A stretch of 37,825 bases of DNA from Chiloscyllium plagiosum (lineage: Eukaryota). Position numbers and translations under genes: made by a program. A model generated the notes under the pieces. The model made no database searches. It worked only from the letters and a program-made list of their open reading frames with translations, and was not told where the DNA came from. Where the stretch lies: positions 47,477,501-47,515,325 of the forward strand of contig NC_057719.1 in assembly GCF_004010195.1 (NCBI RefSeq), read 5' to 3'. Shown here one piece after another: positions 1,436 to 33,930 of this stretch; the first letter of the stretch is position 1; each line of letters starts with the position of its first letter.

Positions 1436-3494
1436 GTAGTTCTGACCCTAATTCAGAGTGAAGTTCAGTGCACTATTGAATGGGCCCTGTATTGTCATAA
1501 CATTTATGGATGAGATGTCAAACTGAAACTCTATCTGTAACCAGCTGATCCACCAAGCTTGTTTTTGCACTTTGGTCACTGAAACTACAGTAACAACTCA
1601 ATGGGAGTACAATTTAAGCTTTCCTTATTGTATATATCTCTATCAGATTTCCTTGAAATTTGCAAGGCTTTGAAATAAATGAAGCCAGCTCTTTTAAAAC
1701 CTATCTGAATAACTAAAGTTCCTACGTGTTTGCAAATTCTTGGGACTCCCTCTGCACTTTTTCCAAGGTCACTTTATCTCATGAGAGGATCCAAACTGAG
1801 TGCTAAGTTTAAATACGGTCAAATTAAGGAGCTGTCGAATGGTGTGGTTTTCATCTCTCTGCTTGTAGGATAAACCCTACACTACTTTGTATGGTATGGA
1901 TCTTTTATTCTCATGATTTCTGTAGAGTTCCTGGTAAATGAGAGTGAATTAGTCTTAGTCCTGTACCACACTGCATTTGTCCAGGTTAAGATGCCCTTTG
2001 GAAATTACATTTCATCTCTCAGAAGTTTATATTCTTCCAGTCTTAATATTTCACACATTATTTCATTTGCAAACATGTTTATCATCCTTCCAATATCACA
2101 TTTGGGCCCTTTAATGGGAATAGTGGACAGTATTAGCTCCTAACGTTGATCACTATGGGATGCCAATGGTAATAATCTCCAAATAGTGACCTGAGCCATG
2201 AATTGCTTGGCACAGGGTCAGTAAAATCTATGGCACAAAGATTACAGGAGAAATAGATTATAATTCATGGAATACTGGCACCAATACTGGGGAAAGACTG
2301 ATCTGGTCAGATTCGAACAGGTTCCACTTGAGTCAAAAACAAAAACACAACTGGCTGGAAAAGCTCAGCAAGTCTGGCAGAATCTGTCAAGAGAAATCAA
2401 AGTTCGTGCTTCGGGTCTAGTGACCTTTCCTCAGAACTGATGGAAACTTTGGAAAATGTTGGTTTATATGCAGAAGATAGGGTGGGGGACAGGGTAAAGA
2501 GCAAACAATAGGTAGGGTTAGAGCCCAAAGAGATCAGACAAAGGAGTCGATGGCCATCTGGCTGGGAGGGTGAATAGCTGTTAAGAGACGGTTAGTGGCT
2601 AATAATAGTCTCTCATTACACACTGATGTGGTGGGAGGCTAGGACATGGGAGGTTCAGGCCCTAAAATTATTGAACTTGATAGTCCAGAGGGCTGCAGGA
2701 TCCCCAAGAGGAAGATGAGGTGTTTTTCTTCTAGCTTGTACTGAGCTTTACTGGAGCACTGTCACAAGATTGACAGATATTGGCCAGAGATTGTGGAAGT
2801 GCAGGTTCACTTGGAGGATATGCTTTGGGCCCTTAGATACAGAGGAGCGAGAAGGTAAATGGGGAGGTGTTCAACTTTCAGCAGTTGCAGGTGAAGGGGA
2901 AGTTGGGAGTGAAGGAAAAGTCTACAAGGGTGTCCAACTGGGAACGGTCCCTGCAGAAGGTAGACAAGGGAGGGGAATGGAATAACTGTCTGCTGGTGGC
3001 ATCTTGCTGAAGGTGGGAATAGCGACTTATGATCTTCTGGACGTGGATGCTGGTGGGATGTTAGGAAAGGACAAGGCGATTTTTGTTGTGGGAGGGAGGA
3101 TGGAGGGGGGGGTGGGGGTGAGGGCAGAAATGTGGGAGACTGTCGACAGGCCTCTTAACCGGGTCCAAACAATGGTGCTGGGGAATCCTTGGTGAAGAAA
3201 AGGTGGACATTTCAGAGGATCCCTTGTCTAAGTTGGAACATATGCAATGGGGACTGCGGAACTGGGCAAATGGAATGGAGTCTTTTTCCAGGAAACTGGA
3301 TGAGAGGATGTACAATTCAGGTAGCTGTGGGAGTTCATAGTGGATATTAGTGGCCAGTCTATCCCCAGGAGAACAGTTGGAAGAACAACACCTCATTTTC
3401 TGTTTGAGGATGCTGCAGCCTTCTGGACTTGATATTTTAGGGCCTGAACTCCCCTATGTCCTAACCTCTTAACACGTGCACCAGGCCTCACATT

Positions 3495-3738
3495 GGGAGA
3501 AAGTGAGGACTGCAGATGCTGGAGGTCAGAGTCGAAGAGTGTGGTGCTGGAAAAGCACAGCAGGTCAGGCAGTATCAGAGGAGCAGGAGAATTAATGTTT
3601 CAGGCATAAGCCCTTCATCAGCCAATATTCCAACCACCCTGTCAACATGACTGTTTTGATCCTTAGGAAAGCCTATCCACCGGCCTGCTCCTCGGATGCT
3701 GCCTGACCTGTCCTCTTCCAGCACCACTCTCAACTTAC
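3495..3738. mobile_element. Short fold-back PLE-terminus element (family B) nested in the family A element
   Basis: Arms ~3533-3590 and ~3684-3735 are inverted copies; flanked by cacatt (3489-3494 / 3739-3744); same sequence family as 12711, 17237, 22397, 27198. Confidence 0.75.
3590..3621 (-). ncRNA. Minimal hammerhead ribozyme motif, family B (degenerate)
   Basis: Reverse complement CTGATGA-A-GGGC-TTAT-GCCT-GAAAC-AT-T; core boxes present, stem I 5' strand lost and stem III mismatched. Confidence 0.55.
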
Positions 3739-3911
3739 CACATTCTGTCATTACATGCTACCTATTGTTTATCCACTAACAGCCTCCATTAGCACTGTTC
3801 ACCCTCCCAGCCAGATCATTGACTCCTTTGTTTATCCAGCTGTTCTTCTGTCTCTTTGGGCTCTATCTCCCTACCTAACGTTTACTGACCAACATTTGCC
3901 TGGCTACCATC

Positions 3912-3949
3912 AGTTCTGAGGAAGGCTCACCGGACCCGAAAGATTAACT
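3912..3949 (+). ncRNA. Minimal hammerhead ribozyme motif, family A (degenerate)
   Basis: AGTT-CTGAGGA-A-GGCTC-ACCG-GACCC-GAAA-GA-TT-AACT; stem I AGTT/AACT. Confidence 0.55.
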
Positions 3950-4059
3950 TTATTGTTTCTTCTCAGATGCTGCCAGACTGACTGAGCTTTTCCAGCAACT
4001 TCTGTTTTTGATTTTACAGCATGCACAGTTCTTTTAGTTCCATTTGGGGACTAGGATCT

Positions 4060-4745
4060 TGGTGACTTGCATAGCTAGGGTGTAGATAGACTTTAAACTA
4101 AATAGTGGTAGGGGAGATTCAGTTGCATGGAAAGTTGGTAACAAAAAAAATAAAGGATTGTAGAGGTTGAGTGCAGTTCAGATGAGGCTGATTGTTACCA
4201 GAAGTTGAAAGGATAGAGCATGTGAATATCATATTGCACCAAGAAATCATTGACTAGACAAAATTGATATTTTAGACATTATTCTAAAGTTTAACAGTGC
4301 AAATGGAGACCAATAGGTATGATTTTAGTGATGAGCACGGAGATGTGGTTACATGGGGACCAGGACTGGGAATTAAATATCCAAGGATACTCCATGTTTT
4401 GGAAGTAAGAAAAGGAGATGATGTAGCTTGCTTAGTAAGGGAAGAGGTCAGAGCTATATAGTGAGAAATGGTTACAGACGTTGGGGGTTAAGATGGAGCA
4501 TCATTCTAGACAGAAATAAGAAACTGGGAAAGAAGACCAGAGTGAAAGCATCCATGGCTGAACAGTCAAGTTAAAGACAACATGTTGCTAAAGTCAGTGG
4601 CAGGCTGGAGAATTGGGAAACTCTTAAAGACCAAAGGATTACTGATAAGTAATTTTAAAAAAAAAGCAAAGTTAAAATAAGAAAGTTAGTTGAAAATAAA
4701 AAAAAAGGCCAAAGTGAGTCCCTTTTATGGATGAGGCTTGAGGGT
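4060..4745 (+). mobile_element. Old CR1 LINE fragment (endonuclease region)
   Basis: 4318-4395 reads approximately YD-LVMSTEMWLHGDQDWELNIQGYS, matching the CR1 APE motif (D-x-x-A-I-T-E-T-W-L); heavily decayed. Confidence 0.65.
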
Positions 4746-4769
4746 TAAATGGGAAACAGCTGAAATACC

Positions 4770-5125
4770 TTTTTTAATCCTTTCAAGGATGAGGGTATTG
4801 CTGGCTAGGCCGGCATTTATTGCTCATACCTAACTACCTATAGGGCATTAAGAGTCAACCACATTGCACTGGGTCTGGAGTCACATGTAGGCCAGACTAG
4901 GTAAGGATGACGGTTTCCCTCCCAAAAGGACATTTATTCAATCAAATGGGTTTTTGTAATAAATGACTATGGATGTGTGGTTGTCATTAGATTATTAATT
5001 CCAGACTTCTTTTGAATTCAAATTCCAACATCTGATATGGCAGATTCAAACCCAGGTCCCCAGAACATTACTTGGGTCACTGGATTAACAGTCAAGCAAT
5101 AACGCTACTAGGCTATCACTTCCCC
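4770..5125 (-). mobile_element. tRNA-derived SINE, apparently full length
   Basis: Reverse complement starts gggaagtgaTAGCCTAGTAG (A box) ... GGGTTTGAATC (B box) and ends in an A-rich tail (tttttt at 4770-4776 on +). Confidence 0.8.
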
Positions 5126-5504
5126 TAAACTTGTTTGTACAGAGGGTGCTGAACTATTCCAATAGTAACAGAAAATGCAGAGATAATAGAAAAGCACAAA
5201 CTTGATACAATTGCCATCATTTGGGAGGAAAAGATTAAAGCACATTTTTGTGTGGTTTTTGAGTAGACATTAGGAGTGATGTGACTGAGGAAAGAGGGTG
5301 TGCAGAAGAGATTTATCAGGATGTTACCGGGGCTGGGATGTTTACTTGTGAACAGAGATTGGATAGCCTGGGATTGTTTTATTTAGAGAGATGAAACTGA
5401 AGGGGGCATCATGAGTTTAATGTAGAGAAGCATGAGGTTATCCATTTTGGTCAGAAGAATAAATAGTCTAAAGGAGAGCAACTTCAAATTTTTTTTCCTG
5501 GGAA

Positions 5505-6835
5505 TCCATAAGACACAGGAGCAGAAATCAGACTTTTTTGGCCCATCATGTCTGCTTTGCCATTCAATCATGGCTGACGGGTTTTGCAATCCCATTTTCT
5601 GGCTTCCTCCCCCTTGGCAAGCAAGAACTTATCTATTGCTGTTTTAAATATACCTGATGACCTGGCCTCCACAGCCTCCTGTGGCAACGAATTCCACAGA
5701 TTAACCATTCTCTGGCTAACGAAGTTTCTCCTTATCTCCATTCGAAAAGGTCTTCCCTCTACTTTAAGGCTGTGCCCTCTGGTCCTAGTCTCTCCTACCA
5801 ATGGAAACATCTTCCCAACGTCCACTCTGTCCAGGCCATTCCACATTTTGTAAGTTTCAATCAGATGCCCCCTTATCCTTCTAAATTCAGAATATAGTTC
5901 GAGTCCTAAAATTTTCCTCATGTTAAGCCTTTCATTCCTGGGATCATTCTCGTGAACCTCCTCTGGACCCGCTCCAGGGCCAATACATCTTTCCTGAAGT
6001 ATGGAGCCCAAAATTGCTCTCAATACTCTGAAGCTCTGGTCAGACCACATTTAGAAGTACATCCCTGCTTTCATATTCTAGTCCACTTGAGATGAATGAC
6101 AACACTGTATTTGCCTTCCTAACTACTGACTCAACCTGCAAGTAAACCTTGAGTCCTACTCCAGGTTTCTCCTTTTTGCACTTCTGAATTTTCTCTCCAT
6201 TTAGAAAATAGTCCATGCCTCTATTCTTATCAAAATCCATGATCTGTCACTTTCCCATGTTGTATTTCATCTGCTGCTGCTTTGTCCACACTCCTAACCT
6301 GGTTAAATCTTTCTGCAGCCTGCCTTCCTCCTCAATACTAACTGCCCCTCCCCCTATCTTTGTACTATCTGCAAACTTAGCCAGGATGCCTTCAGTTCCT
6401 TCATCCAGATTATTTATGTATAAAGTGAAAAGCTGTGGTCCCAACACTGAACCTTGTGGAACACCACTAGTCACCAGCTTCCATCCTGAGAAGAACCCTT
6501 AATCTTCAGTCCATGCTAGTACCTGGCCTCTAACACCATGGGTCCATATCTTACTCTGACGTCACTTGTGCAGCACCTAATCAAAGGCTTCTGGAAGTCC
6601 GGATAACATCCATTGGCTCTCCTTGGTCTAACTTGCTTGTTATCACCTCCAAAGAATTCTAACAGACTTGTCAGGCATGATCTCCCCATCCTGACTTTGC
6701 CCCATTTTACCATACATTTAAAAGTATTCAAAAATCTCATTCTTCGCAGTGGACTCCCAAAATCTTACCAATAATGAGGTCGGACTAATCGGCCTATAAT
6801 TTCCTAACTTTTGCCTTGCTCCCCTCTTAAACAGG
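5505..6835 (-). mobile_element. 5'-truncated CR1 LINE (RT to 3' UTR)
   Basis: Minus ORFs: NYRPISPTS, GRSCLTSLLEFF, VTSGVPQGSVLGPQLFTLYINNLD, KFADSTK, TRGHSLK..RNF..QRMVNLWNSLP; 3' end near 5505. Confidence 0.92.
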
Positions 6836-6879
6836 AGAATCATGTACAGGGACACCCAATGCCTCAGCAACAAAACTAG

Positions 6880-7500
6880 TATGCAATTACAGCAAGTAAT
6901 AAGGAAAGCAAATGGAATTTTGACATTTATTTCTAAAAGGTATGAAAGTAGGGAGATGTTACAATTGTAACCATATCTGCATTGAGACCATATCTTGAGT
7001 ACTGCGAACAATTTTGATCCCTTTACTTGAAGGGTGTAATTGCATTGGAGACAGTTCAGAGATATTCACTCGATTAATTCAAGATTAAACACTTGCTTTA
7101 AGCAGAGGTTGTTTAGTTTAGGTATATACTCCAGCGTTTGGAGGAATGGGAGGAAATGTAGTTGAGGCGCATGAGATGCTGAAGGAATCCACCAATGTGC
7201 TGTAGAATGTATGTTTCTCCTTGTGGGATAATTTAGAGCAGGAGTTTTAGACTAAGGGTTGGCAGATTTAAAACAGAAGAGGAGGAACTACTTCTCAAAG
7301 GATTATAATCTGTGGGATTTTCTACCAGAGGGTGCGGTGGATGTCAGGACACTAAATAAATTTGAGCAATTTTTAATTAGTAATGGGTTGAAGGGGAATG
7401 GGCATGAAAGTGAAGCTGAGGCCAAGATGTGATCAGCCATGATCATGTGAAGTGGCAAATGCAGGCTTGCGGGATTGAATTCTCTACTCCAGCTCTTAGT
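6880..7500 (+). mobile_element. Older CR1 LINE 3' part, continuing from 5410-5490 and interrupted by the minus-strand CR1
   Basis: QQVIRKANGILTFISK, LRPYLEYCEQF, later NLWDFLP and CR1-type 3' UTR; 5424-5460 reads EKHEVIHFGQKN, the segment immediately upstream in CR1 ORF2. Confidence 0.75.
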
Positions 7501-7809
7501 TATTTTCCAACCTGCCTCCTCAGATATTGCTAACCATTTTGTACAATGGATTGGAGCCAATTTTTTAATCTAGCAACATCGCTGTATCTTAGGTGAGCTA
7601 CTGAGAAGCACCTTGTCTTTTCTAATGATCATGAGAAGCATCTCTTACATTCCTCCGTTTAAGCATGTTGCGTAAGATGGATGGAAAGTGTAGTTCTGAC
7701 TCTGAACTTTCCTCTTTGCTTGGTTTCTGTGCAGTGTGATGGCAGACTTTATTCTGTTTCTCTAATTAGTGTTGTTGTGTAGATTTCCCCTGCATGTAAA
7801 GTGTTATCT

Positions 7810-8160
7810 CTGCATCAGTGGGCATTATTCTTGCCCCTCAGTGCTTTCTACTCCAGGACTTGATCTCAATCTAGGCTGCCCTGTGGGAGTGCTATGTGGT
7901 TGGAGGTTTCATCTTTCATTAGATGGAATAAACTTTCCAGTAGATGCAAAGGATCCGTGGAATAATTCGAACAAAAACTATCATTATCCTTTTGTCCTGA
8001 CCAATATTTATCCTTCAGTCCATATCATAAAATCAGATTATCTGATCTTTATCACATTGCTTTTTATGGGAGTTTGCTGTGCTCAAATTGGCTGCCACGT
8101 TTCCTACATTTCTAAACAATAATTAGACTTCAACAACTGTAAATCTGTAATCTGAGGTCA
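7810..8160 (+). mobile_element. Deu-domain SINE (SacSINE1/AmnSINE1-like)
   Basis: Contains tgtcctgaccaatatttatcc..cagattatctgatctttatcacattgct..gggagtttgctgtgctcaaattggctgccacgtttcctacatt, matching my recollection of the DeuSINE consensus. Confidence 0.75.
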
Positions 8161-9112
8161 CCCTCTTTGCTGTCCACTACACCTCCAATTTTGGTGTAAT
8201 CTGCAAACTTACTAACTGTACCTCTTACGCTCGCATCCAAATCGTTTATGTAAATGACCAAAAAGTAAAGGACCCAGCACCGATCCTTGTGGCACTCCAC
8301 TGGTCACAGGCCTCCAGTCTGAATGAACAAACCCCCCACCACCCTCTGTCGTCTTCCTTTTGAGCCAGTTCTGCATCCAAATGGCTAGTTCTCCCTTTAT
8401 TCCATGAGATCTAACCTTGCTAATCAGTCTACCACGGGGAACCTTATCGAATGCCTTGCAGAAGTCTATATAGATTCATCTACTGCTCTGCCCTCATCAA
8501 TTTTCTTTGTTACTTCTTCAAAAAAACGCAATCAAGTTTGTGAGACATGATTTCCCATGCACAAAACCTTGTTGACTATCCCTAATCAGTCCTTCCTTTC
8601 CAAGTACATGTACATCCTGTCCCTCAGGATTCCCTCCAACAACTTGCCCACCACCGAGGTCAGGCTCACTGGTCTATAGTTCCCTGGCATGTCTTTACCG
8701 CCCTTCTTAAACAGTGGCACTACGTTTGCCAACCTCCAGTCTTCCGGCACCTCACCTGTGACTATCGATGATACAAATATCTCAGCAAGAGGCCCAGCAA
8801 TCACTTCTCTAGCTTCCCACAGGGTTCTCGGATACACCTGATCAGGTCCTGGGGATTTATCCACCTTTAACCATTTCAAGACATCCAGCAGTTCCTCCTC
8901 TGTAATCTGGACATTTTGCATGATGTCACATGTATTTCCCTATGGTCTATATCTTCCATATCCTTTTCCACAGTAAATACTGATGCAACATATTCATTTA
9001 GTATCTTCCCCCATTTTCTGTGGCTCCACACAAAGGCCACCTTGCTGATCTTTGAGGGGCCCTATTCTCTCCCTAGTTACCATTTTGTCCTTAATATATT
9101 TGTAAATCCTTT
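8155..9112 (-). mobile_element. CR1 LINE internal ORF2 fragment
   Basis: ORF 8586-8921: KSPGPDQVYPRTLWE..VPEDWRLANVVPLFKKG..NYRPVSLTSVVGKLLEGI; continues into the VTSGVPQGSVLGP region. Confidence 0.92.
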
Positions 9113-9367
9113 CTAGAGAAAGGATAAGAACTAAATATTATTGGTCTGCATTTTTAAAATTAGTTTTTACAGGGAAAATTATTTTATGTAAAGTATTTGT
9201 GAATATTTATGCTTTTGTATTTCAATCTAAACGCTCTGATTTGTATCTTTGTTGAATAAATCTTGTTTTAATATAAATCAATTATTCTTTATTTAAGAAA
9301 TCTGAATTGGATTTTATAAGAATCCTAATATTAAAGTATATGTTAGCCATATCAGTACTTGGGTTAA

Positions 9368-9450
9368 GCCTGTTGGACTATAACCTGGTGTTGTGTGACC
9401 TTCAACTTTGTACGCCCCAGTCCAATACTGGCATCTCCAAATCATGACTA
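9368..9450 (+). mobile_element. PLE family C 3' terminus fragment
   Basis: cctgttggactataacctggtgttgtg..cccagtccaa shared with 19580-20021, 20064, 29940, 32515. Confidence 0.7.
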
Positions 9451-11270: not shown

Positions 11271-11499
11271 AGGGTTCTGGATGAGCTGCGGTTTCCTCCA
11301 AATAAACATTATTTTGCTTTGTCATCACAGCTCCGTTCCTTTGCTTTCTGTCTCAGATTAAGTGTGTGTGTGTGTTTGTGTGTGTTAAAAAGCTGCTCTT
11401 TCTATTTGACTCTCATTTCAGACTTTGAATTTTAATATATCTGCTTCCCCACATATATTAAGTACTTCCAACTCTCTGCTTATTGACTGCTAAAACCCT

Positions 11500-12707: not shown

Positions 12708-12743
12708 ATTCCTGAAGAAGGGCCTGTGCCCGAAATGTCGAAT
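12708..12743 (+). ncRNA. Minimal (PLE-type, type I) hammerhead ribozyme motif, core intact
   Basis: ATTC[stem I]-CTGAAGA-A-GGGC-CTGT-GCCC[stem II]-GAAA-TG-TC-GAAT[stem I']; predicted cleavage after C12739; loopless stem III. Confidence 0.7.
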
Positions 12744-12836
12744 CTCCTGTTCCCTGGATGCTGCCTGACCTGCTGTGCTGTTCCAGCAATAAAGTTTCAA
12801 CTTTGATCTCCAGCATCTGCAGACCTCACTTTCTCC
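12711..12836 (+). mobile_element. ~126-bp PLE family B terminus insertion with target-site duplication
   Basis: Flanked by the direct repeat cccctcatattatt (12697-12710 / 12835-12848); begins with a hammerhead motif and ends with cagcatctgcagacctcactttctcc. Confidence 0.85.
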
Positions 12837-15170: not shown

Positions 15171-15818
15171 GTTAAGGGGCCTTATGTGTCAACATGAGAT
15201 CAAATAAACTGAATCAGGCATGAGCACTCCACTGTGGAGATGAGTACCAGTGAGGCATTCAGCCATCTGAAGTTGTTTCTTCATGGCATTAAATAGTACA
15301 AATACTTTGAAGTAATATGTGAACATTTTTTTATTAATGTTTTAATTGACATGCAAATTTTTCTAATAGGTTTTTGATTTTGTATTGTTGCTCATTACTA
15401 GCAACAAGTTTTCCTTTACAGCAAAAGTAATAACTATATCTTTAATTATAAAATTTAATTCTTATACAAAGGTTTGTGCTTTGGAGTTTTTGGTGGCAAT
15501 CTTTGTAATGAGGGAGTGGGGTCTCAGAAGCAAAATATTGAGAACTGTCACCTTTAGAAGTGAACTTTTAATCCTCATCCAACTTAAACATTATCAAACC
15601 AGTGCACAGCACTTTATGCATACTTGTAATACTTAACAACAGGATGGAGAAGTTATCTTTAATAAAAAGACACATTATTGAATACTGAGTTAGAATTCAC
15701 ATCATCCAACCACTAATCAACATCACCAGAAATAAAACTTAAGCTTTGATCATTTAAGTGCTTTTTAAGTGAACCAGAACCAAAAAAATTAATGTTTCTA
15801 TGTTTTCACATTTTGCAG

Positions 15819-16334
15819 CATTCATTAACCAATGGCATCAAGAATCCAAGGACAAGGTGGTGATGCTTTTGCTGACCCATCTCCCATTATTGAAGCCAGG
15901 AAATATTGAGGCAAAAATAGAATACATGAAGCTTTTACCTAAGATCCTGGCTCATTCAATTGAGAACAATCAGCATATAGAGGAAAGCAGACAACTCTTA
16001 TCCTATGCTTTGATCCATCCAGCCACCTCATTGGAGGACAGAAATGCACTAGCCATGTGGCTCAACCATTTAGAGGACCGCACCTCTAACTATGGAAACC
16101 AGACCAGAGGACGTCCAGATTCGATGGATTTTGGGCAAACTCTTTATTATCACCAAAGACAGAACTCTGATGACAAGCTCAATGGTTGGCAGAGTCTACG
16201 TGATTCTGGGATCTGTGTGTCTGCTTCTAACTGGCCAGATAAGAACCAGGCTTGTGAAAATGGACATTTGCCACTTTATTCTTCTACATCTGTACCTACA
16301 ACAATTAACACTATTGGAACTAGCACAACCACAA
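15819..16334 (+). CDS. SAMD4A: Internal coding exon of SAMD4A (Smaug homolog 1), equivalent to mammalian exon 3
   Basis: Translates (x)[128 protein letters not shown], very close to vertebrate SAMD4A and more like A than B. Acceptor ttttcacattttgcAG (15817-18), donor GTAAGT (16335-40); 516 nt, phase 1-1. Confidence 0.97.
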
Positions 16335-16899
16335 GTAAGTATAAAATGCTGTTGTTTTTAAACATTTTGTAGTTTAACGTTTTACAGGCTTTTGAGAAAA
16401 TATATTCTAGAACTTTTAAAGGCAAAAGCTCTGTTTTAGGTAAATGTGGAATGTTGCTGAAGATTTTCATCTTGCACTTGTCAGGAAAATTTGCAGGAAT
16501 ACCAATGTAAGGGGGAAGCAACACTTTTACTATATAAAGTGAGAATGCAGATTGGTTGGCAAAACTACTCTGGTAGAAACGTTGCTAAAAAAAATATGCT
16601 AGTTAATAACTCTTAGCTGCCAAGCTTTGTTTAAATTTTAAAATTGGGTAGGTTGACTGTGGCTAAGGCATTGCCTTGAGAAATCAACCAGTGGCTTCCA
16701 CCATTTTGTTTTTATTTTTGAGTTGAAACAGGCAACTAGTATATACAAGTTTGTTCCATCTGCAAAGAACAGCATCTTGTATGTTAATATATGTAGCCCC
16801 CATACATTTTTGGCATGATTGCAGTATTTTTTGGGGGTGAACTACTCATCTGCATAGTAGTAGTGTGACATGGCTTGCATCAACTGTTGCTCAAATTTT

Positions 16900-17236
16900 G
16901 AAGATCCCTTACTCTTCAGAGTAATGAGTTAGCTAGTTCAACTCTCTTTCACGCTGTCACCATGCAGCACCAACACAGTTGGTGTTCACTGACAGGATGA
17001 CACCATCAAGCCCAAGGGCATTCTGAGCTCTTCACAAACTAATCCTGTAGTTTATGAATTTCAATGCTGGTGTGATGCCTGGTTAAACGCCCATATCCCA
17101 TAAATAAATTGAATGACTTATCCCTTTTGGCTGCTCACAGCAAGCAATGTACTGATTATGCCTAATCTATCTGACATTTGCAAAACCCACAATACACAAT
17201 ATCTGATGTGAGATGTGATGTTGCGATTAGTCAAAA
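16900..17236 (+). mobile_element. Old PLE GIY-YIG fragment (different family), resumes at ~18476-18560
   Basis: VVYEFQCWCDAW at 17048-17083 (GIY-YIG first strand), RCDVAISQ at 17210-17233, and HLLDNPV after the insertion at 18480. Confidence 0.6.
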
Positions 17237-18475
17237 ATTGTGGTGCTGGAAAAGCACAGCAGGTCCGTCAACATCCAAGGAACAGGAGAGTTGATGTTTA
17301 GGGCATCAGCCCTTCAGGGATGTGGGGGGTTTCCAAGGAGGCTGAGAGAGAACTGAGGTGGGGTTGTGGTTGCAGGGGGGTAGAAGACCAGGGAAAATTG
17401 AATATTTGAGAAGACAACTGCCAAGCCACCAGCATGTAAAAGGACTGCCTGAAAAATAGCTCTCTTAAAAAGGTACGTGTATCAATCAGTAACATGTGAA
17501 GCAGAATCCCCAAGAAGATTCTGAATCCCCAATATAAGGAGAAGGTAGATTGGAAGGTGATAGGTAGATGAAGATGGAGGGGGTGATGGGTTGGAGTGGG
17601 GGATGGAGCAAATAGGTGGGAAGGAAGGTGGACAGGTAGGACTGTTCAAGAGGGCAGTGAAGTAGACATTGATGCTGTGTACTTGGTGGGTCTCAAGGCG
17701 GGAGATGAGGCGTTCTTCTAGGCTTTGGGTGGCTTAGGATTTGATGGTGGAGGTGGCCCCGGACTTTGCATGTCCTTGGCAGAATGGGAGGGGGAGCTGA
17801 AGTGGTCTTCCACAGGGCAGTGGCATTGTTGGATGTGTCCCCCTGGAGATATTCTCTGAACTGTTCTGTAAGTTTGGCATCCTGTCTCCCCAACATAGAG
17901 GAGACCACATTTGAGAGCAACGGATATAGTAGGTGAGTTGTTTGGATGTGCAGGAAAATCTCTGGATGTGGAAGGATCTCTTGGGACCTTGGATGGAGGT
18001 GAAGGGGAGATATGAGCACAGGTTTTATACTTCTTGCAGTGGCAAGGGAAGGTGCCAGGAGTGGAGGGTAGGTTGGTGGGGGTGTGTGGCCCTAACGAGG
18101 GAATGGCGGAGGAAATGGTCTCTGCAGAATGCTGATCGTGTGGGGAGGGAAATTATATCTGTTTTGGTGGGATCAGACTGTTGGTGGCAAAAATGACGGA
18201 GGATGATATGTTGTATCCTGAAGTTGGTGAGGTGGAAGATGAGGACCAGGGCATTCTATCCTTGCAGTTGGAGGGACGGGATTCAAGGTGCAGGAACTGG
18301 CGGAGATGCATTGGAGGGTATTGTTGACCATGTGGATGGGGAAATTGCAGTCCTTGAAGTTGGAGGCCATCTGGGATGTTCTGGAGTGGAATTGCTCCTT
18401 CTGGATGGAGATGCAGCAGTGGTGGAGGAATTGGGAGTAAGGGATAACATTTTTACAGAAGTAGGACGGAGGGTG
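17237..18475 (-). mobile_element. Penelope-like element remnant (family B)
   Basis: Minus ORFs: HPPSYFCKNVIPYSQFL..EQFHSRTSQMASNFKD.NFP (PLE RT thumb) and KLTEQFREYL / LEERLISRL (GIY-YIG); family B terminus with decayed hammerhead at 17240-17320. Confidence 0.85.
17379..17516. repeat. ~140-bp dispersed repeat, inverted copy of 27826-27964
   Basis: Reverse complement aligns base by base; the ORF track gives near-identical peptides (MGILLH.LLIDT.TF.RELFF.QSFYMLVAWQLSSQ) at both sites. Confidence 0.9.
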
Positions 18476-18835: not shown

Positions 18836-18970
18836 AATTCTGAAGAAGAGACATACTGGACTCAGTGTCAACTCTGTTTCTCTCCACATATGCTGCCAAG
18901 CCCACTGAGTTTTGACAGCAATTTGTTTGGTTTAGATTTCCAGCATCTACAGTATTTTGTTTTTATTTGA
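18836..18970 (+). mobile_element. PLE terminus fragment (family A-like) with decayed hammerhead
   Basis: ttCTGAAGAaGAGACatactgGACTC..gtcaactctgtttctctccac..atgctgcc..ttccagcatctacagtattttg. Confidence 0.65.
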
Positions 18971-19577: not shown

Positions 19578-20021
19578 ATGTTGGACTGGGATGAACAAAG
19601 TCAGAAATCGCATGACCCCAGCTATAGTCCAACAGGTTTATTTCAAATCACAGGCTTTCAGAGCATAGCCCCTTTGGGTGAAGTGAGAGGGAAGTACACA
19701 AAACACCCCAAAGTATGGGCAGAGAGATCAAAAGATCATACAAATGGTGTGAGTGGAGTGTTGAATAATAAGTCTCTGCAGGTGACCAAAGGTGTTAGTA
19801 TGAGTAAAATTTCAATAACTGAATAACAACCAAAGGGATAACCAATAATCCAAATAAATGGTGCCTCCGTTCACACCATTTGCATGATGTTTTGATCTCT
19901 CTCCCCATAAACTGTTGTATGTGCTCCCCTCTCACTTCACCTGACAAAGAGGCTATGCTCTGAAAGCTAGTGCTTCCAAATAAACCTGTTGGTATATAAC
20001 TGGTGTCGTGTCATTTTCTGA
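19578..20021. mobile_element. Fold-back PLE family C mini-element
   Basis: Arms ~19599-19758 and ~19865-20021 are inverted repeats; hammerhead-like motif CAC-CTGACAA-..-GAAA-GC-TA-GTG at 19938-19972. Confidence 0.8.
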
Positions 20022-20059
20022 CAAGATTTATGGAGCAACTTCCTTCAAAGATAATGAGT

Positions 20060-20150
20060 TAAAAAATCACAACACCAAGGTATAATCCAACAGGTTTATT
20101 TGGGAGCACTAGCTTTGGAACACTGCTCCTTCATCAGGTGGTTGTGGAGT
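20060..20150 (-). mobile_element. PLE family C terminus with hammerhead motif
   Basis: Reverse complement CAC-CTGATGA-A-GGAGC-AGT-GTTCC-AAAG-CTA-GTG (20107-20140); G of GAAA missing. Confidence 0.75.
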
Positions 20151-22396: not shown

Positions 22397-22590
22397 TAGG
22401 AGAAAGTGAGGACAGATGTTGGAGATTAGAGTAGAGAGTGTGTTGCTGGGAAAGCACAACAGGTCAGGCAGCATCCGAAGAGCAGGAGAATTGACGTTTC
22501 GGGCATAAGCCTGATGAAGGGCTGATGAAACGTTGACTCTCCTGCTCTTCAGATGCTGCCTGACCTATTGTGCTTCCCAGCAACACAACG
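22397..22590. mobile_element. Fold-back PLE family B mini-element with TSD
   Basis: ~60-bp inverted arms 22439-22500 / 22527-22587; centre made of two truncated head-to-head hammerhead motifs; flanked by aaaacctgc (22388-96 / 22591-99). Confidence 0.85.
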
Positions 22591-22687
22591 AAAACCTGCA
22601 GCAGTTTAAAACATCAGCCCTTCCTTTCGCAGAAAGTCAGTTGGCGTAGTGAATGTCATTGTCATTAGCCTTGAAATTAGTCAGTTT

Positions 22688-24272
22688 ATAAGACCATAAG
22701 ACATAGGAGTGGAAGTTAGGCCATTCGGCCCATAGAGTCCACTCCGCCATTCGATCATGGCTGATGGGCATTTCAACTCCACTTTCCCACATTCTCCCCA
22801 TAGCCCTTAATTCCTTGTGACATCAAGAATTTATCAATCTCTGCCTTGAAGACATTTAGCGTCCCGGTCTCCACGACACTCTGCGGCAATGAATTGCACA
22901 GACCCACCACTCTCTTGCTGAAGAAATGTCTCCGCATTTGTTCTGAATTTACCCCCTCTAATTCTAAGGCTGTGTCCACAGGTCCTAGTCTCCTCGCCTA
23001 ATGGAAACCATTTCCTAGCGTTCACCCTTTCCAAGCCATGTATTATCTTTTAAGTTTCTATTAGATCTCCCCTTAATCTGCTAAACTCCAATGAATACAA
23101 TCCCAGGATCCTCAGCCGTTCCTCATGTTAGACCTACCATTCCAGGGATCATCCGTGTGAATCTCCGCTGGACATGCTCCAGTGCCAGTATGTCCTTCCT
23201 AAGGTGTGGGGACCAAAACTGGACACAGTACTCCAAATGGGGCCTAACCAGAGCTTTATAAAGTCTCAATAGCACAACGGTGCTTGTATATTCCAACCCT
23301 CTTGAGATAAATGACAACATTGCATTCGCTTTCTTAATCACTGACTCGACCTGCATGTTTACCTTTAGAGAATCCTCGACTAGCACTCCCAGATCCCTTT
23401 GTACTTTGGCTTTATGAATTTTCTCACCGTTTAGAAAGTAGTCCATGCTTGTACTTTTTTTTTCCCCCAAAGTGCAAGACCTCGCAATTGCTCACATTGA
23501 ATTCCATCAGCCATTTCCTGGACCACTCTCCCAAACTGTCTAGATCCTTCTGCAGCCTCCCCACTTCCTCAGTGCTACCTGCCTGTCCACCTAACTTCGT
23601 ATCATCGGCAAACTTCGCTAGAATGCCCCCAGTTCCTTCATCCAGACCATTAATATATAAAGTGAACAGCTGCGGTTCCAACACTGAACCCTGCGGGACA
23701 CCGCTTGTCACCGGCTGCCATTCTGAAAAAGAACCTTTTATCCCAACTCTCTGCCTTCTGTCAGACAGCCAATTCTCAATCCATACCAGTAGCTCACCTC
23801 GAACACCATGGGCCCTCACCTTGCTCGCCAGCCTCCCGTGTGGCATCTTGTCAAAGGCCTTTTGGAAGTCTAGATAGACCACATCCCCTGGGTTTCCCTG
23901 GTCTAACCTACTTGTCACCTCTTCAAAGAATTCCAACAGGTTTGTCAGGCACGACCTCCCCTTACTAAATCCATGTTGACTTGTTCTAATCCGACCCTGC
24001 TCTTCCAAGAATTTAGAAACCTCATTCTTAATAATGGATTCTAGAATTTTGCCAACAACTGAGGTTAGGCTAATTGGCCTATAATTTTCCATCTTTTGTC
24101 TTGATCCTTTCTTGAACAAGGGGGTTACAACAGCGATCTGCCAATCATCTGACTCCAGTGACTTTTGAAAGATTTCAATCAACACCTCCGCTATTTCCTC
24201 AGCCACCTCACTCGGAACTCTAGGATGTAGCCCATTGGGGCCAGGAGATTTGTCAATTTTAAGACCTGTTAG
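22688..24272 (-). mobile_element. Relatively young 5'-truncated CR1 LINE (RT domain to 3' tail)
   Basis: 260-aa ORF 23424-24206 with NYRPISLTS, QHGF..GRSCLTNLLEFF, YLDFQKAFD, GVPQGSVL, FADDTK; frameshift at the T-run 23454-23463; tail ataagaccataagacatagg. Confidence 0.96.
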
Positions 24273-24754: not shown

Positions 24755-24976
24755 GAGTACAAAAACAGACATTGCTGGAAAAGCTCAGCAGGTCTGGCAG
24801 CATCTGTGAAGAGAAATCAAAGTTATGTTTTGGATCTGGTGACCCTTCCTCAGAGCCTGGACCCAAAGCGCTAACTCAGATTTCTCCTCTCTGATGCTGG
24901 CAGACCAGCTGAGCTTTTCCAGCAACATCTGTTTTTGTTTGTGAATTACAGCACCTGTCGTTCTTTCACTTTTTAC
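24755..24976. mobile_element. Fold-back PLE family A mini-element with TSD
   Basis: Inverted arms ~24760-24835 / ~24860-24938 match the 2340 and 3940 termini; flanked by atactat (24747-53 / 24977-83). Confidence 0.82.
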
Positions 24977-25889: not shown

Positions 25890-26135
25890 CTCGAGTCATC
25901 GAGATGTACAACACGGAAACAGACTGTTTGTTCGGTCCAACCTGTCCATGCTGACCTGATATCCCAACCCAATCTAGTCCCACCTGCCAGCACGCACCTG
26001 GCCCATATCCCTCCAAACTCTTCCTATTCATATTCCCATCTAAATGCCTCTTTAAATGTTGCAATTGTACCAGCCTCCACCACTTCCTCTTTCAGGTCAT
26101 TCCATATACGTACTGCCCTCTGTGGAAAAAGTTTG
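25890..26135 (-). mobile_element. CR1 3' end fragment
   Basis: Reverse complement reads RAVRIWNDL..KRHLDGNMNRKSLEGYGP plus 3' UTR; same subfamily as 33931-34950. Confidence 0.85.
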
Positions 26136-27197: not shown

Positions 27198-27273
27198 AGG
27201 AGAAAGTGAGGTCTGCAGATGCTGGAGATCAGAGCTGAAAATGTGTTGCTGTAAAGCGCAGCAGGTCAGGTAG
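27198..27273 (-). mobile_element. PLE family B terminus running into an assembly gap
   Basis: gaggagaaagtgaggtctgcagatgctggagatcagag..gcagcaggtcagg is the reverse complement of 12765-12836. Confidence 0.8.
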
Positions 27274-27773
27274 NNNNNNNNNNNNNNNNNNNNNNNNNNN
27301 NNNNNNNNNNNNNNNNNNNNNNNNNNNNNNNNNNNNNNNNNNNNNNNNNNNNNNNNNNNNNNNNNNNNNNNNNNNNNNNNNNNNNNNNNNNNNNNNNNNN
27401 NNNNNNNNNNNNNNNNNNNNNNNNNNNNNNNNNNNNNNNNNNNNNNNNNNNNNNNNNNNNNNNNNNNNNNNNNNNNNNNNNNNNNNNNNNNNNNNNNNNN
27501 NNNNNNNNNNNNNNNNNNNNNNNNNNNNNNNNNNNNNNNNNNNNNNNNNNNNNNNNNNNNNNNNNNNNNNNNNNNNNNNNNNNNNNNNNNNNNNNNNNNN
27601 NNNNNNNNNNNNNNNNNNNNNNNNNNNNNNNNNNNNNNNNNNNNNNNNNNNNNNNNNNNNNNNNNNNNNNNNNNNNNNNNNNNNNNNNNNNNNNNNNNNN
27701 NNNNNNNNNNNNNNNNNNNNNNNNNNNNNNNNNNNNNNNNNNNNNNNNNNNNNNNNNNNNNNNNNNNNNNNNN
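27274..27773. other. Assembly gap (500 N)
   Basis: N run. Confidence 1.
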
Positions 27774-27825
27774 GACTTCTCTCAAAACCAGGCAGCTTTT
27801 GGTTCTGCTCTGATTTCCTGTCTTT

Positions 27826-27964
27826 TTCTTGGGGATTCTGCTTCACAGGTTACTGATTGATACAGGTACTTTTTCAAGAGAGCTATTTTTCGGGCAGTCC
27901 TTTTACATGCTGGTGGCTTGGCAGTTGTCCTCTCAACTATTCACTTTTTCCTGGTCTTCTTACC
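27826..27964. repeat. ~140-bp dispersed repeat, inverted copy of 17379-17516
   Basis: Direct alignment by eye. Confidence 0.9.
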
Positions 27965-29369
27965 ACACCCCCGCTCCCCCCACCAAAGTATTGGATTGTG
28001 TCATTGGCTTTTAAGATTGTCAACATACTCAATTTGCACTTGATCAGAATTTGGTATTTTTGGGGTATAGTTTAAACTGGCCAAATTTTAATTTGTCTCT
28101 TAGCAACTCATCCAGTGTTATCTTTTCTGAACCAAGTGTTACATTGTAAAATCTCCAGCACTCGGTGTTTGCCAAGTCCTTCACTCTCTCTTAAAGATAC
28201 AGTACACTTGTACACCTTCATAACACTATCAATTAGCACAAGACTACCCTAATTTAAAAAGTCATTTTTCAATGTGAATAACAGTTGGGGACAAGAAATA
28301 TTGTTGTGCTTTGAATATACTCATGAACAGAATTTTATAATCTCCCACTGGTGTGCTTGAAAGTGGGGTGCTCAAATGGAGAGGGTGGACTTCTTACCCC
28401 ACCCATCAATTGTGGGAATTGAGCTGCTTTAGCTAAGCCAGTTGACCTTCAGTAAGGGGGAAAGGCTTCTCCTTCTAGAATCCACTTGACAAACCCCTCG
28501 TGCAAATACTTGATATATTTTCTGTCCAGTCAGAAGACTTCAGCCAAACCTGAGGTGAGAGGATCTGATCATAGAACTGTTGGTCTTGGCTGTTATTGCT
28601 GTAATGGCATATTAATAAGGATATGCCATATGCAATAATGATCAAAAGAAGGGCTACATTGAAACAGTTTGCTTAGTAAAGGCCAAAGAAGGCAGAGAGC
28701 TCACTCCAATGATAATGAGAACTGGAATTGCCACGAGGGCAGAATTTGCAGTTATGAAGTGAATCCAGAATGCAGCTATGATGATATAGCATTAATGAGA
28801 GCAATTCAAATAAGATTTTTTTTTGTGTAAAGTTGATGAAAGATCAGCAGTGCATCACCATATATACTGGTAAACTGCATATTATTCCATTATGAATAGG
28901 GAATATGCAATAGCAAACGCAGTAACATGCCTATTCTTATGAGGTGTCAAAATGGATGAATGAAATGCCATGTCCATTTAAGGGCAAGTTCAGTGGTGTA
29001 GCAAGATATAGTAAGCAACCAACTGATTTAAGACTGGTTTTGTAAACTGAAGTTGGATTGGAAGCTGTTTTTCAAGTAATTAACTTTTGAATAGCTACAG
29101 TGATGTTTTTGAGGACAGTTATGAAGGCATAATTGCCATGGAAGCACAAATCTGCATCAAATTTGTATATCTGATCAATATATTGCCAGATAAGGTCAGT
29201 TCCTTTAGTTCCATTAAACCTCCAATTTTAATAATATAAAGAATCTAATGACCATTGGTGCATTAATGAAAACTTAGTGCAGTGATTGGATACTGAATCT
29301 GTAATTATATCCAAGTTTGACAAAAGTATCTGACTTATCGTGGATAACAAAGGCGCAACAGTGGACCAG

Positions 29370-29790
29370 AAGACAGTAGAAGTAGGCCATTCAGTCTACT
29401 GAGTCTGCTCTGTCATTCAGTGATATCATGAATGATTTGATGTTCCTCAACTCCACTTTCCTGCTTTTATACCATAACCCTTGATTCCCTTACTCTTTGA
29501 AAAATCAGCCTAATGAACCTCCTATGGACTGTCTCCAATATCCGTATAATCTTCCCTTTTGAGGGGCACCAAAAAGTTCACAGTATTCCGGCTGTGATCC
29601 AACTAATGCTGTATATAGCTTTTATGAAGACCTCCCTACTTTATCTTTTCATTCCCTTTTGAAATAAAGGCCAACATTCCATTTGCCTTCTTGCTGAACT
29701 TGGATGCTAGCTTTTTGTGATTAGTGGACAAGGACTCCCAGATACCTCTGTTCTATAGCTTTCAGCATGTCTTTCCTATCTAAATAATAT

Positions 29791-29833
<43 letters not shown>

Positions 29834-29915
29834 TGTAAAGTGCATAACCTCACATACTCCATCTGCCAACCGTTTGTCCATATACTTAATTTGTCTATAA
29901 CCCTCTGGAGACCCT
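29370..29915 (-). mobile_element. Degenerate CR1 3' fragment containing a (CT)n microsatellite at 29793-29830
   Basis: agaagtaggccattcag 3' UTR; minus strand KANGMLAFISKG, PEYCE. Confidence 0.75.
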
Positions 29916-29936
29916 CATGACTCACTTTCCATCATG

Positions 29937-30125
29937 TGTTGGACTGGGATAGGCAAAGTGAGAAGTCACAACACCAGGTTATAGTCCAATAGGTTTATTT
30001 GCAATCATGTGCTGTCAGACTGCTGCTCCTTTGCCAGGTGAACCCTATGACTGAGCAGCGCCTCTAAAAGCTTGTGATCTTAAGTTAAACCTATTGGACT
30101 ACAACCTGGGGTCATGGGACTTCTC
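29937..30125. mobile_element. Fold-back PLE family C mini-element
   Basis: gagaagtc..ccaggttatagtccaataggttta versus taaacctattggactacaacctgg..gacttctc inverted arms around decayed hammerhead halves. Confidence 0.75.
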
Positions 30126-32509
30126 TCGTTTTCCCACCAGGCCAAATAAGCTTTATTAGTTTAAAAGGTCAGGCCTGGGGGCTAATTGGAGGCTGAACCA
30201 TGATAAAGGTTTGTATGCTCACAGTGACCCTAGGAAGGGCATTGAGTTTAAACAGAGCACAAGTTGGCTATTAATGGGATCAGTACCTGGGAATTTATTC
30301 TGTCAAATCTGGAAGAGACCCTATGATCAATGAGATGGCAGAGAGAGAAGAACCAGAATTCAAGTATTTTTTAATTATCTCTTCTGGTGAGATGAGTTTG
30401 GCCACTGACAACACAAGATGGAGATTTCAAAGCTCCCTGCTGAATCTTCTGTACCAGCTTTCAGAAACTTTGAAAACATGAGTTGGACGTATTGCTGCCT
30501 TTATCTGGTTGAACTGAGAAGGTGACCCTGATCGGTTCTGGAAAAGTAATCAAGGTATCCACATCCATGCCTGTGAAACAATGTTTAATGAAAACCATTT
30601 AGGTGGCCAGATCTATTATTTTGGTGTGTGTGTGTCTATCTCTTATGTAAATAGGAGCTGAGACAAATGCTTTTTTTTAAAGTATCAACATTAATCTGTT
30701 TATTTTCTGTGCTAAAGTTGTGTATTTTATAAATAAAGCCTTTATATTTGAGATACAGTATAAATGTCTAGAATTAATTATTCACTAAGTGAGGGATTGA
30801 TTATCCAAAAGTCTGGTTAGGAACTATTTGGGGTCTTCAGTTTAATTTTACTGTGGTGCAAATGCATTACATTGGTAGGTTGATTTTTTTTTTTTGGTTC
30901 AGCTGCATCTCTGTCGTAACAACATCTTGCCAATTTTTGCCTGAAAACAATGACTTTGCTGTCTCCCAGTATTTGTTTGGAAAACACTTTTTTGCTCCTT
31001 GAATACTAAGGTGTCAAACGAAGATGTCAAATTTTCTGAAAACCCAACCAGAATGAGAGTTGGGAGAACTGATGGTGAGGTAGCGCTGCACTCATGTACA
31101 TTTGGAACAAATTCTTCATGAATTCTGAAGATCGACATGTGCAGTATGCTGTCACACTCAACATGTATTAGAGGATATCATAACCAAACTGTTTAGTACA
31201 GTTGTCATTGCAAGTCTCCAAATATTGTATTTCTGCCTATGAGTTATGAAAACACATCTATGAAAAATCATAATTAACCAACCGCTTGGATTCTCTAGGG
31301 TAGAAAATTGGTTGGATGACATAGCTCCTATCTTTGACAATTGGAGAAAAGAATTCTCACAAAATCTATATGATTTTGTTTCCCATGTAGGTTATTCACC
31401 TGTAATGAGCATTGAGATCAACATGTGTAAAATGGAGATTAATGTTTATTTATGGTTCCCTTTTTGAAATTGATTTTGCTTGATAGGTTGAAGTATGCTG
31501 TCAGTTTTTCAGGCTCACAGCAGCCAAACTGGTAGTCTGGAATGGGAACAATATAAAGGAGAACTAATAGTACATCATATTTAAAATTAAAACATCCAAA
31601 GGATTAAATCTTTACCAATAATTAATCTTCTAATCAAATTTTAATAGGAGCTTTACTGCAGCAATTTATGCACATTCTGACCTGAAAATGTATATTATTT
31701 TTGCAGTCCTGTCAAGCTTTAAAGAGGCCAGTTTTGTTTCATTCCGAAATCCCAGTTTCTGAAGCCATAGTAGCTGTTGTGATAAGAGGATTCAAATATC
31801 ATTTGTACATTTATTTCATACCCTCAAGTTTGTTTTTTCAGTTTATCATGGAATACATAATGTGCCTGTCATCACCTTTAGAAAGAGGTGATTTATTTCA
31901 GAATTGGTGAAATATTGGACAATTGTGACCAAGGAGCTATGTGAATTTTCTCCTTTAGTTGAAGCTGTTCTGTATTGCCAGGATTTTCTATTCTTTTGCC
32001 AAAAATCTGACATTGGCATTTTTTCAGAGGGTTTACTATTTAGATTCTCCAGGGTACATAAGTTCATAAGATTTAGCTTGTTAAGTAAATATTGTCAGCT
32101 ATGAGCATAATACTATGGAAGCTAGATATCTGAAAGAATGAATGTGGAAATATTGAACAGGTCAGGCTACACCCATGGAGAGATGAAGAATTGATGTTTT
32201 CAAATTGGGGCTTAATGTTTGAAAGTACTGCAAAACAGGCAGGGTCAAGGACCTTGCACCTGATTTATCATTTCTGATTTAAAATATTATCTACTTGGGG
32301 AATGCCCATTTTAATTAGTCATTCACAGTATGGTCTGTTTACAAGTAAAGGATTAAAAGGTACTATGTTGATGTGCCAAGTGAGGTATAAAGGTAGCATT
32401 AAAGTTCCAATAACAGGAGATACTTATTTTGGTTTTATGAATTTCACCATCACCACTCCAAATAGTATGGGGGTTCCCTTTTAAAAATGAACAAAATGTA
32501 CCAAAGGAT

Positions 32510-33930
32510 GATAAAACACCAGGTTATTGTCCGACAGGTTTATTTGGAGGCACTAGCTTTCAAAGCACTACTTCTTCGGGTGGTTGTGGAGCAGAATCAT
32601 GCGACACAGAATTTATAACAACAGGATTGTAGTTTCACAAAATGTAATATTAAACAAATTTACCTTGATCATTCTAAAAGATGAAAGACTCATGTTAATT
32701 TCGATTCCTTAATATGTAAATCCCAGAACTTAAAGTTACATTCTCAGGGTAGCTTTTAACAATAGGTGCCATCTCGGCTCAAATTATGCATTGAAGGTAT
32801 GAAGTTAGTCTGTCTGTATCCCAATGTTAGGTCAGACTGATTCTACTTCTAAAGTGGGATTTAGAGAATTTTTTACACTGATTTATGCAGTTTTTGAGCA
32901 AAATAAAATGTAATTCTGCAAGTGCAAATTCACCTCTCAAACTTGTATGTGCGCGTGTGCACCAGGGAGCCTGAGGGAGTGTGTAATGGGGTAGTGTGGG
33001 GATGTTTGTGTGAGCGCATGCTCGTGAGTAAGTGTAAAGTGCAGTGTGGTCACCTGTAGTGTGACATGAACGCAAGGTCCTTATTGAGGCCATCCCCACG
33101 GATATCAAACTTGCCTATCAGCCTCTGCTCGGCCACTTTTTTTGTATTGTTGCCTGTCCTGAAGTCCACCTTGGAGGATGGTCACCAGAAGCAGTCCAGG
33201 ACATTTAGCCTCTGACCGGAGGTGTTCCCTGACTGGAAGGGAACATTCCTAGATGGTGACTTTGTCATGTCCATCCATCAGTTTCTGCAGCCTCTGCTTG
33301 GTCTTGCCTAGGTACCATGCCTCAGGGCATCCTTATGCAGCGTATGAGAGAGACAACATTGGCAGAGTGACAGACTACCTGTCACGAAATGGTGGTGGTG
33401 ACCCCATGTGTAATGGTGGTACCCATATTGACACTCTGACACATCTTAGTGTCTGCCATGTCAGGATTGTATGGTGTTGTCCTGAAGGTTAGGCAGTTTG
33501 CTGCAAACAATGATCTGTTTGAGATTCAGTGGTTCTTTAAAGACAAAGAAGTGGAGGTGTCGGGAAGGTCTTGGTGAGGTGCTCATCCTCATCAATAATG
33601 TGTTGCAGGTCGCAAAGAACATAGGGTACCTTTTTCAATACTTCCCGGGAGCCAAAAAACTACACTCAGTTGCAGCTCATGTCGGTATCTTGAGGTCATT
33701 ATGGTTTCTCACTGTGACACATCAAAACTGGCGGTTGATGAGTAGAGCATTGTACCCCGTTCTTATGAGGGATCCTTGAGTACTTTCAAATGTTCATCAC
33801 GTTCCTCCTCATCCGAAAAGATCCTGTGTATGTGTGGGGCTTGTCTGTAGGGGTTGGCTGTTTTACTATGTTTAGGGTGGAAGCCTGATGAAGAAGCAGC
33901 ACTTTGAAAGTTAATGCTTTCAAATAAATT
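32510..33930 (-). mobile_element. Penelope-like element remnant (family C) with GIY-YIG and inverted termini
   Basis: Minus strand 33270-33381 reads CHSANVVSLIRC / GCPEAWYLGKTKQRLQKLMDG (GIY-YIG); family C terminus at 32515-32590 (-) and inverted copy CTGATGA..GAAA at 33885-33928 (+). Confidence 0.85.

Follow-up and report, generated by a model that had tools for sequence, protein, structure and literature searches.

The remains of three families of Penelope-like elements (PLEs), here called A, B and C, lie within a stretch of 37,825 nucleotides (the window) from the SAMD4A region of the bamboo shark Chiloscyllium plagiosum (contig NC_057719.1, positions 47,477,501 to 47,515,325; genome size 3.56 Gb). 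Their termini are almost certainly PLE minimal hammerhead ribozymes, predicted from their sequence to cut themselves. When these termini are compared with copies across the genome, they suggest that the element's messenger RNA begins with the hammerhead as its capped 5′ end and would have been the source of about a million short stubs, and that the ribozyme acts as a switch for decapping or end trimming rather than as a processor of the template; to this reading we assign a probability of roughly 0.55. What is new here is the finding that the 5′ ends of many copies lie immediately ahead of the motif and frequently carry an added G, which makes capped, uncut RNA their likely source. Given the clustering of 5′ ends at the base of stem I, a TATA-like box about 30 nt upstream and the frequent extra G, the hammerhead is likely a capped leader that stayed uncut; it would probably make up the first 33 nt or so of the capped transcript and usually be copied into DNA without having been cleaved.

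Hammerhead motifs across the genome

Sampling of the genome covered 39 large contigs, from which 60 blocks of 20 kb were drawn at round coordinates (1.16 Mb of non-N sequence), and this sample was scanned, as the first-pass annotation of the window had proposed, with a structural descriptor consisting of a stem I of at least 2 bp, CTGANGA, 0-1 base, a stem II of at least 4 bp, GAAA, 2 bases and TH. The scan gave 64 matches, against 0 in a reversed control and 1, 0 and 0 in shuffled controls. Exact intact motifs in the whole genome numbered 255 for A, 76,157 for B and 12,467 for C, with 0 for each reversed pattern, which bears out for the family motifs the layout that had been read from the window: stem I, CTGANGA, A, stem II, GAAA, 2 nt, UH and the returning strand of stem I. 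If the sample is typical, the genome would hold roughly 190,000 descriptor-positive motifs and about a million terminus pieces, the latter extrapolated from 342 in the sample.

Stem I reads AGTT/AACT in A, ATTC/GAAT or GATT in B and CAC/GTG in C; stem II has 5, 4 and 5 bp, respectively; the palindrome of stem III is ACGU in A and B and AGCU in C; and H17 is U in A, C in B and A in C. An extra base stands between positions 9 and 10.1 in 63 of the 64 descriptor matches, 15.2 and 16.2 pair in 53 of them, and the G10.1-C11.1 pair is also found. The stems vary between families while the catalytic boxes stay fixed, as had been claimed, and the stems covary. For one pair in stem II of B the genome-wide counts are G-C 1,704, A-C 155, G-T 162 and A-T 352, the compensatory A-T combination being 24-fold above the 14.7 expected were the two bases independent, and single compensatory examples occur in stem II of A and stem I of C.

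The earlier view that three families co-exist, each with its own minimal hammerhead, holds in that A, B and C are all present in the window and their motifs are intact genome-wide. However, the genome has more than three motif types, and nearly all the window copies are dead, a single one passing the descriptor. Among the descriptor matches a further type, CTGATGA-T-GTTAC..., whose stem II measures 5-7 bp and whose tail is unrelated, was seen in the sequences L170 and L190; it is absent from the window and likely represents another PLE family.

Where the copies begin and end

Ends were mapped for 303 of the 342 sampled pieces (those scoring 50 or more whose 5′ end is free of N, a minimum of two being duplicates), with C3 of the hammerhead set as position 0. 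A pile-up of 5′ ends is seen at the base of stem I, where 47 of 183 copies of B and 12 of 63 of A begin no more than 2 nt from -4 and 8 of 57 of C no more than 2 nt from -8, these centres having been picked after viewing the data and the upstream motifs. Starts within 2 nt of the cut site number 2 in B, 3 in A and 2 in C, where the backgrounds are 5.9, 3.4 and 2.4 per 5 nt. Long copies carry, about 30 nt upstream of the pile-up, a TATAAA (A and C) or a conserved TTTATC-like box (B), and the sequence at the pile-up itself is TCAGTT, TCATTC or CCACAAC; by their likeness to the consensus, we take these boxes and words to be a putative TATA box and initiator. A splice acceptor was considered as the origin of the pile-up and rejected, A having CAG at this place and B and C being without AG. 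A TATA box with an initiator has been proposed in the pseudo-long terminal repeat (pLTR) of a rotifer element (PMC3846280), and the RNAs of Penelope and Chlamys start within the pLTR (PMC8557442).

In B and C the 3′ ends fall into two groups, one around +82 to +95 and the other around +120 to +128, the outer limit being set by reference copies which had been cropped by hand. These clusters match the optional tail as well as the two internal reverse-transcription starts of the anole element (PMC11167929).

The extra G was counted genome-wide in the young subfamily B-CTGT, in which the base before ATTC (-5) is the template C in 6,484 copies, G in 1,109, A in 730 and T in 189. At position 0, a control where the template is also C, there are 68 G, 280 A and 104 T, such that G accounts for 55% of the non-template bases at -5 and for 15% at the control (chi-square p 3e-52); palindromic AATT joins raise the A count at -5. 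Thirty of the G loci were inspected and their flanks found to be unrelated target sites, and on this ground point mutation or subfamily origin was rejected as the source of the G. In two of the 30, one G separates the target duplication from ATTC and agrees with neither the target nor the template; in four, a lone G stands between two inverted arms that are both complete; and an inverted partner was scored in 16 by an automated test. An extra G also marks capped full-length insertions of long interspersed nuclear element 1 (LINE-1) (PMC11702581).

Coding sequences and clade

Three remnants of open reading frames (ORFs) had been reported in the window in the same sense as their termini, and all three are present, on the minus strand. 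Each was searched in the genome, 40 candidates being scored and the best 20 loci fetched, with the window copy included. The nearest downstream terminus in the same sense belonged to the remnant's own family at 17 of 20 loci for C, 17 of 20 for B and 16 of 20 for A; in the misses no terminus was found (2, 3 and 2 loci, in the same order) or another type came first (1, 0 and 2). The predicted genome-wide linkage of termini to PLE ORFs is thus upheld, the family's own type coming first at 16-17 of 20 loci, or at 15-16 of 19 once the window copy is set aside. The placing of the motif at the 3′ end is correct for the genomic 3′ end of the ORF remnants, but the motif likely functions as the 5′ leader of a transcript that starts in the pLTR.

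The proteins of the genomic copies have a reverse transcriptase (RT) with DKG and YIDD, a CX4CxxC linker, which could be read in copies of all three families, and, at the C-terminus, a GIY-YIG domain with CCHH. Homologues of the C frame comprise shark proteins of 61-85% identity and unnamed proteins in which both RT and GIY-YIG domains are present; PF00078 is found in the homologues and PF01541 in many of the matches listed, whilst a homologue search with the frameshifted B frame of the window returned none. Direct Pfam matches on the decayed copies were weak (RT, E 0.015; GIY-YIG, E 0.045), and a genome-wide search with the Pfam GIY-YIG model, which is too insensitive, gave one weak match. 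The ORF pieces of A and B are 35-43% identical to each other, and either is 21-31% identical to C. One shark protein annotated as an epn2 isoform (P0013) includes RT sequence of family C, possibly as an exonised element or through an annotation error.

The linker points to the Neptune clade of endonuclease-positive (EN+) PLEs, bearing in mind that Nematis shares it; vertebrate PLEs are reported to be Neptune and Poseidon only (2026 preprint, bioRxiv 10.64898/2026.07.22.740005). In common with Neptune-clade EN+ elements the families have the RT, a CX2-5CxxC linker and the C-terminal GIY-YIG with CCHH, and in common with EN+ PLEs they show 5′ truncation, inverted partners, an optional tail of 30-40 bp and target-site duplications (PMC8557442; PMC3846280).

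At three loci the tail reads on into a shared ATG-led frame, two of these being partial tandems, and none of the fetched copies is full-length. The order B tail, shared ATG-led frame, element 3′ end is seen in L051 (minus strand, oriented 1087-1627), L136 (1-623) and L184, which are short partial tandems with large internal gaps. The long tail of family B has a terminal pyrimidine run, often followed by AAG, and resembles a splice acceptor before the ORF.

Proposed mechanism and alternative explanations

Under the mechanism proposed here, transcription would be driven by a TATA/initiator promoter in the pLTR and begin with the opening base of stem I in A and B, and about 5 nt earlier in C. The element protein would nick the target and reverse transcription would set in at an internal point of the RNA, about +85-95 or +126, as in vitro work has demonstrated for the Poseidon element of the anole. 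Extension up to the cap would yield stubs of 90-135 bp, while priming from both DNA ends would give rise to head-to-head pairs. The hammerhead has no loop on stem III and would mostly be inactive during this step, needing a second copy to pair with or the element protein to fold it (PMC4209133; PMC11167929). Its cutting would take away the capped leader or shorten the 3′ copy, and the hammerhead is therefore most likely a switch on the element RNA and not the maker of the template's 5′ end.

A number of observations weigh against this proposal. The test of the extra G covers one subfamily of B, G having been seen in A and C without a genome-wide count, and in 9 of the 30 inspected loci the G may belong to the inverted partner arm and in 2 it is inside the target duplication, the remaining loci having filler or no clear target duplication. 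Family B is without a true TATA box. The commonest B subfamilies have a mismatched stem I (ATTC/GATT), and the double change in stem II of B traces to one parent lineage, not to many events; furthermore, five motifs folded with energies no better than those of shuffles (z -1.0 to +0.4), and the dimer hammerhead did not emerge from a two-strand fold. At the cut site, tail starts number 125 at +28 after A or G and 50 at +29 after C or T, as counted with patterns different from those used for the start site; by eye about 27 of 30 at +28 and 19 of 30 at +29 are true breaks, a 3- to 4-fold excess, and a small cleaved fraction is therefore possible. Non-template starts at -4, of which there are 2,028, outnumber cut-site starts by more than 10 to 1, and joins to an inverted partner via short homology make up about 14 of the 30 inspected +28 copies. 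The complementarity of stem I supplies a homology of 4 nt by which the 5′ end of one arm is joined to the cut-site position of the other, mimicking a cleaved template (L302-L331).

Two single-cell poly(A) runs bearing the same species label were compared with a B copy and gave 965 reads, on both strands, and 0 reads, respectively. The run with 965 reads has no place where many molecules begin or end, and its 89 reads with loose ends at -4 are stub junctions inside host transcripts, which are uninformative on starts or cleavage.

One alternative follows the proposal of Cervera and De la Pena (2014; PMC4209133), in which template processing takes place by cleavage of a tandem precursor: hammerheads would cut the tandem RNA into unit-length or circular templates, and the short copies would be ordinary truncations. 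It would fit the conservation of the motifs with covariation, the weak cleavage of dimeric and trimeric Schistosoma mansoni constructs in vitro (PMC4209133) and a possible small excess of cut-site starts, and templates that are circular would leave no end at that site. Nonetheless, the 303 unbiased copies have no cut-site peak, and circles would not yield a sharp 5′ end and an extra G at the stem I base. In the anole, moreover, mutation of the hammerhead left insertion in vitro unchanged, and RNA-seq of the element revealed no ends at the cut site (PMC11167929), so that template processing appears quite unlikely for these families. An explanation which dispenses with a transcription start at this place is that the 5′ pile-up is a by-product of integration, whether from RT drop-off past the structured motif, joining through short ATT homology or self-priming. 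The anole enzyme does cut preferentially at ATT (PMC11167929) and family B begins with ATT, palindromic AATT joins are common, and self-priming on an antisense template has been proposed for head-to-head junctions (PMC3846280). Yet the starts of A and C, at AGTT and at ACAAC-like words, peak at the same distance from a TATA box, G is enriched at -5 and not at the control position, and a stall would be expected 3′ of the structure; we consider a by-product unlikely.

There is also the idea that the motif no longer cuts RNA in these families and was retained as a protein-binding or promoter element. This would suit the weak stem I of most B subfamilies, the lack of support from folding energies and templates that appear uncut, but the bases of the catalytic boxes, the UH triplet and the palindromic stem III pair are all kept across families whose proteins share only about 25-45% identity, and the anole motif cuts in the presence of protein (PMC11167929), making loss of cutting very improbable.

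Distribution of the copies in the window

A homology scan of the window with real copies as references found 20 terminus pieces (5 A, 7 B and 8 C), several of which are arranged as head-to-head pairs. All 13 positions cited in the first-pass annotation fall on a recognisable terminus of the type given there, on mixed strands. As to its remark that more than ten motifs occur in 38 kb, the density is not special in relation to the genome sample, with one terminus per 3.4 kb or so (342 in 1.16 Mb) as compared with about one per 1.8 kb in the window under a slightly looser search. The full minimal-hammerhead descriptor is passed by one motif only, at 12708-12743 with C3 at 12712, the others having broken catalytic boxes or stems or consisting of the tail, and the window thus holds relics rather than a cluster of working ribozymes. 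An Rfam covariance-model scan of the window gave 0 matches at E up to 1, the minimal motifs being without stem III, and Pfam on 11 in-window frames found no PLE domain and gave one match, unrelated to the termini, to an RT of CR1/L2 type. Identity as non-long terminal repeat (non-LTR) retrozymes was rejected, since it needs head-to-tail tandem units each with a hammerhead and the window copies are solo or inverted.

One copy of family A lies on the minus strand and comprises a 3′ untranslated region (UTR)/pLTR with a decayed minimal hammerhead (2438-2401) and tail at 2333-2608, together with a frameshifted ORF remnant at 2678-3363 with the end of the RT, the Cys linker and the GIY-YIG region (tblastn with family A ORF pieces as queries, E to 4e-16). 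A TATAAA on the same strand at 2463-2468, whose spacing is conserved in long copies, is the predicted promoter, and its first T is 30 nt before the A (2438) of TCAGTT that is the first base of stem I. The inverted partner of this copy occupies 3751-4039 (plus), its hammerhead at 3912-3949 having a stem II mismatch. Family A is further represented by a short copy without a GAAA box at 18838-18953 (plus) and a head-to-head pair at 24771-24975, made up of 24771-24854 (minus) and 24857-24975 (plus).

Family B includes the short copy with the intact motif, 12708-12836 (plus), which was found by both descriptor and homology scan and whose 5′ end coincides exactly with the opening base of stem I. A second short copy, 3496-3628 (minus), has a long tail and a decayed core and starts about 6 nt before C3; a fragment at 3685-3728 (plus) is tail only, and a tail at 27198-27273 (minus) adjoins an assembly gap. 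The terminus at 17229-17372 (minus), in which the first catalytic box is deleted in part, accompanies a frameshifted ORF remnant at 17487-18475 (minus) with the Cys linker and GIY-YIG region (tblastn E 7e-36), and a head-to-head pair at 22398-22587 consists of 22398-22511 (minus) and 22510-22587 (plus).

The 3′ UTR/pLTR of family C at 32516-32763 (minus) has a decayed hammerhead with C3 at 32579 and a TATAAA at 32617-32612 which precedes the predicted start (32587) by 30 nt. Its ORF remnant at 33056-33888 (minus) is frameshifted and spans the RT thumb, Cys linker and GIY-YIG (tblastn E 5e-28), and an inverted terminus at 33884-33928 (plus) abuts the 5′ break of this remnant. Other pieces are a tail-only fragment at 9364-9447 (plus), which was absent from the earlier annotation, a C-type terminus at 19579-19664 (minus) that is the inverted partner of a decayed one at 19938-20017 (plus), a short copy at 20057-20149 (minus) with decayed stem II and GAAA box, and an old head-to-head pair of C type at 29936-30112, composed of 29936-30040 (minus) and 30047-30112 (plus). 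In the C-type copies at 19938-19945 and 29936-30112 the first box is CTGACAA or CTGGCAA, and some have UU at the cut site; they likely belong to an older C subfamily with CTGACGA that has undergone CpG decay.

The one host exon confirmed in the window, of SAMD4A (Smaug homolog 1), lies inside the frame 15773-16372, which matches the Chiloscyllium plagiosum protein with 100% identity over 86% of the query and other bamboo or carpet shark proteins with 99% identity. Two LINE RT remnants, at 23424-24272 and 5506-6833, are 68% alike (Pfam RVT_1, E 1.8e-27) and are presumably CR1/L2-like. A direct repeat of 134 bp with 98% identity at 37280-37556 may be an assembly duplication.

Comparison with known systems and significance

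The motifs of the shark resemble the minimal hammerheads described previously (PMC4209133) in the CUGANGA/GAAA/UH core, the extra base between 9 and 10.1, G10.1-C11.1, the palindromic 15.2-16.2 without loop 3, the presence of several families per genome and the predominance of solo truncated copies. That study reports several motif families per genome in hosts including fish, coelacanth, frog and reptiles, the shark not being named in the portions of its main text covered here, and it does not locate the motif at the transcription start. Stem II is shorter here (4-5 bp, as opposed to 7-8 bp in S. mansoni), and the copy number is far above the 4,000 of coelacanth and 9,000 of Xenopus, although the descriptors differ (PMC4209133). 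With the motif class and its family-wise variation already published, the finding as first posed is an ordinary one.

Another close system is the Poseidon element PAc of Anolis (PMC11167929), whose internal RT starts match the two 3′ end points found here and whose main template is uncut RNA, as is likely for the shark families; PAc nevertheless belongs to another clade and has no Cys linker, and its ORF starts inside the hammerhead, whereas here the candidate ATG would follow the tail. Non-LTR retrozymes, of which related examples occur in one cartilaginous fish, are also non-coding, hammerhead-bearing pieces derived from PLE pLTRs, but they form head-to-tail tandem arrays whilst the copies here are solo or head-to-head (bioRxiv 10.64898/2026.07.22.740005). 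The literature searched yielded no placement of the motif at the RNA start, Schostak 2008 on the Penelope promoter and the supplements of PMC4209133, which lay outside its scope, being works that may bear on this; nor did it yield a shark report, and the review PMC6155905, in the portion consulted, adds nothing on sharks.

The role of the PLE hammerhead is still called unclear (PMC8557442). If it is indeed a capped leader on templates that are copied uncut, the genomic copies would amount to an in vivo test which agrees with one in vitro study, and the abundant stubs of the shark genome, which resemble short interspersed nuclear elements, would be explained without separate non-autonomous elements. 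The same reading would make a precise prediction for cap analysis of gene expression and would provide part of the answer as to what the hammerhead does in Penelope-like elements.

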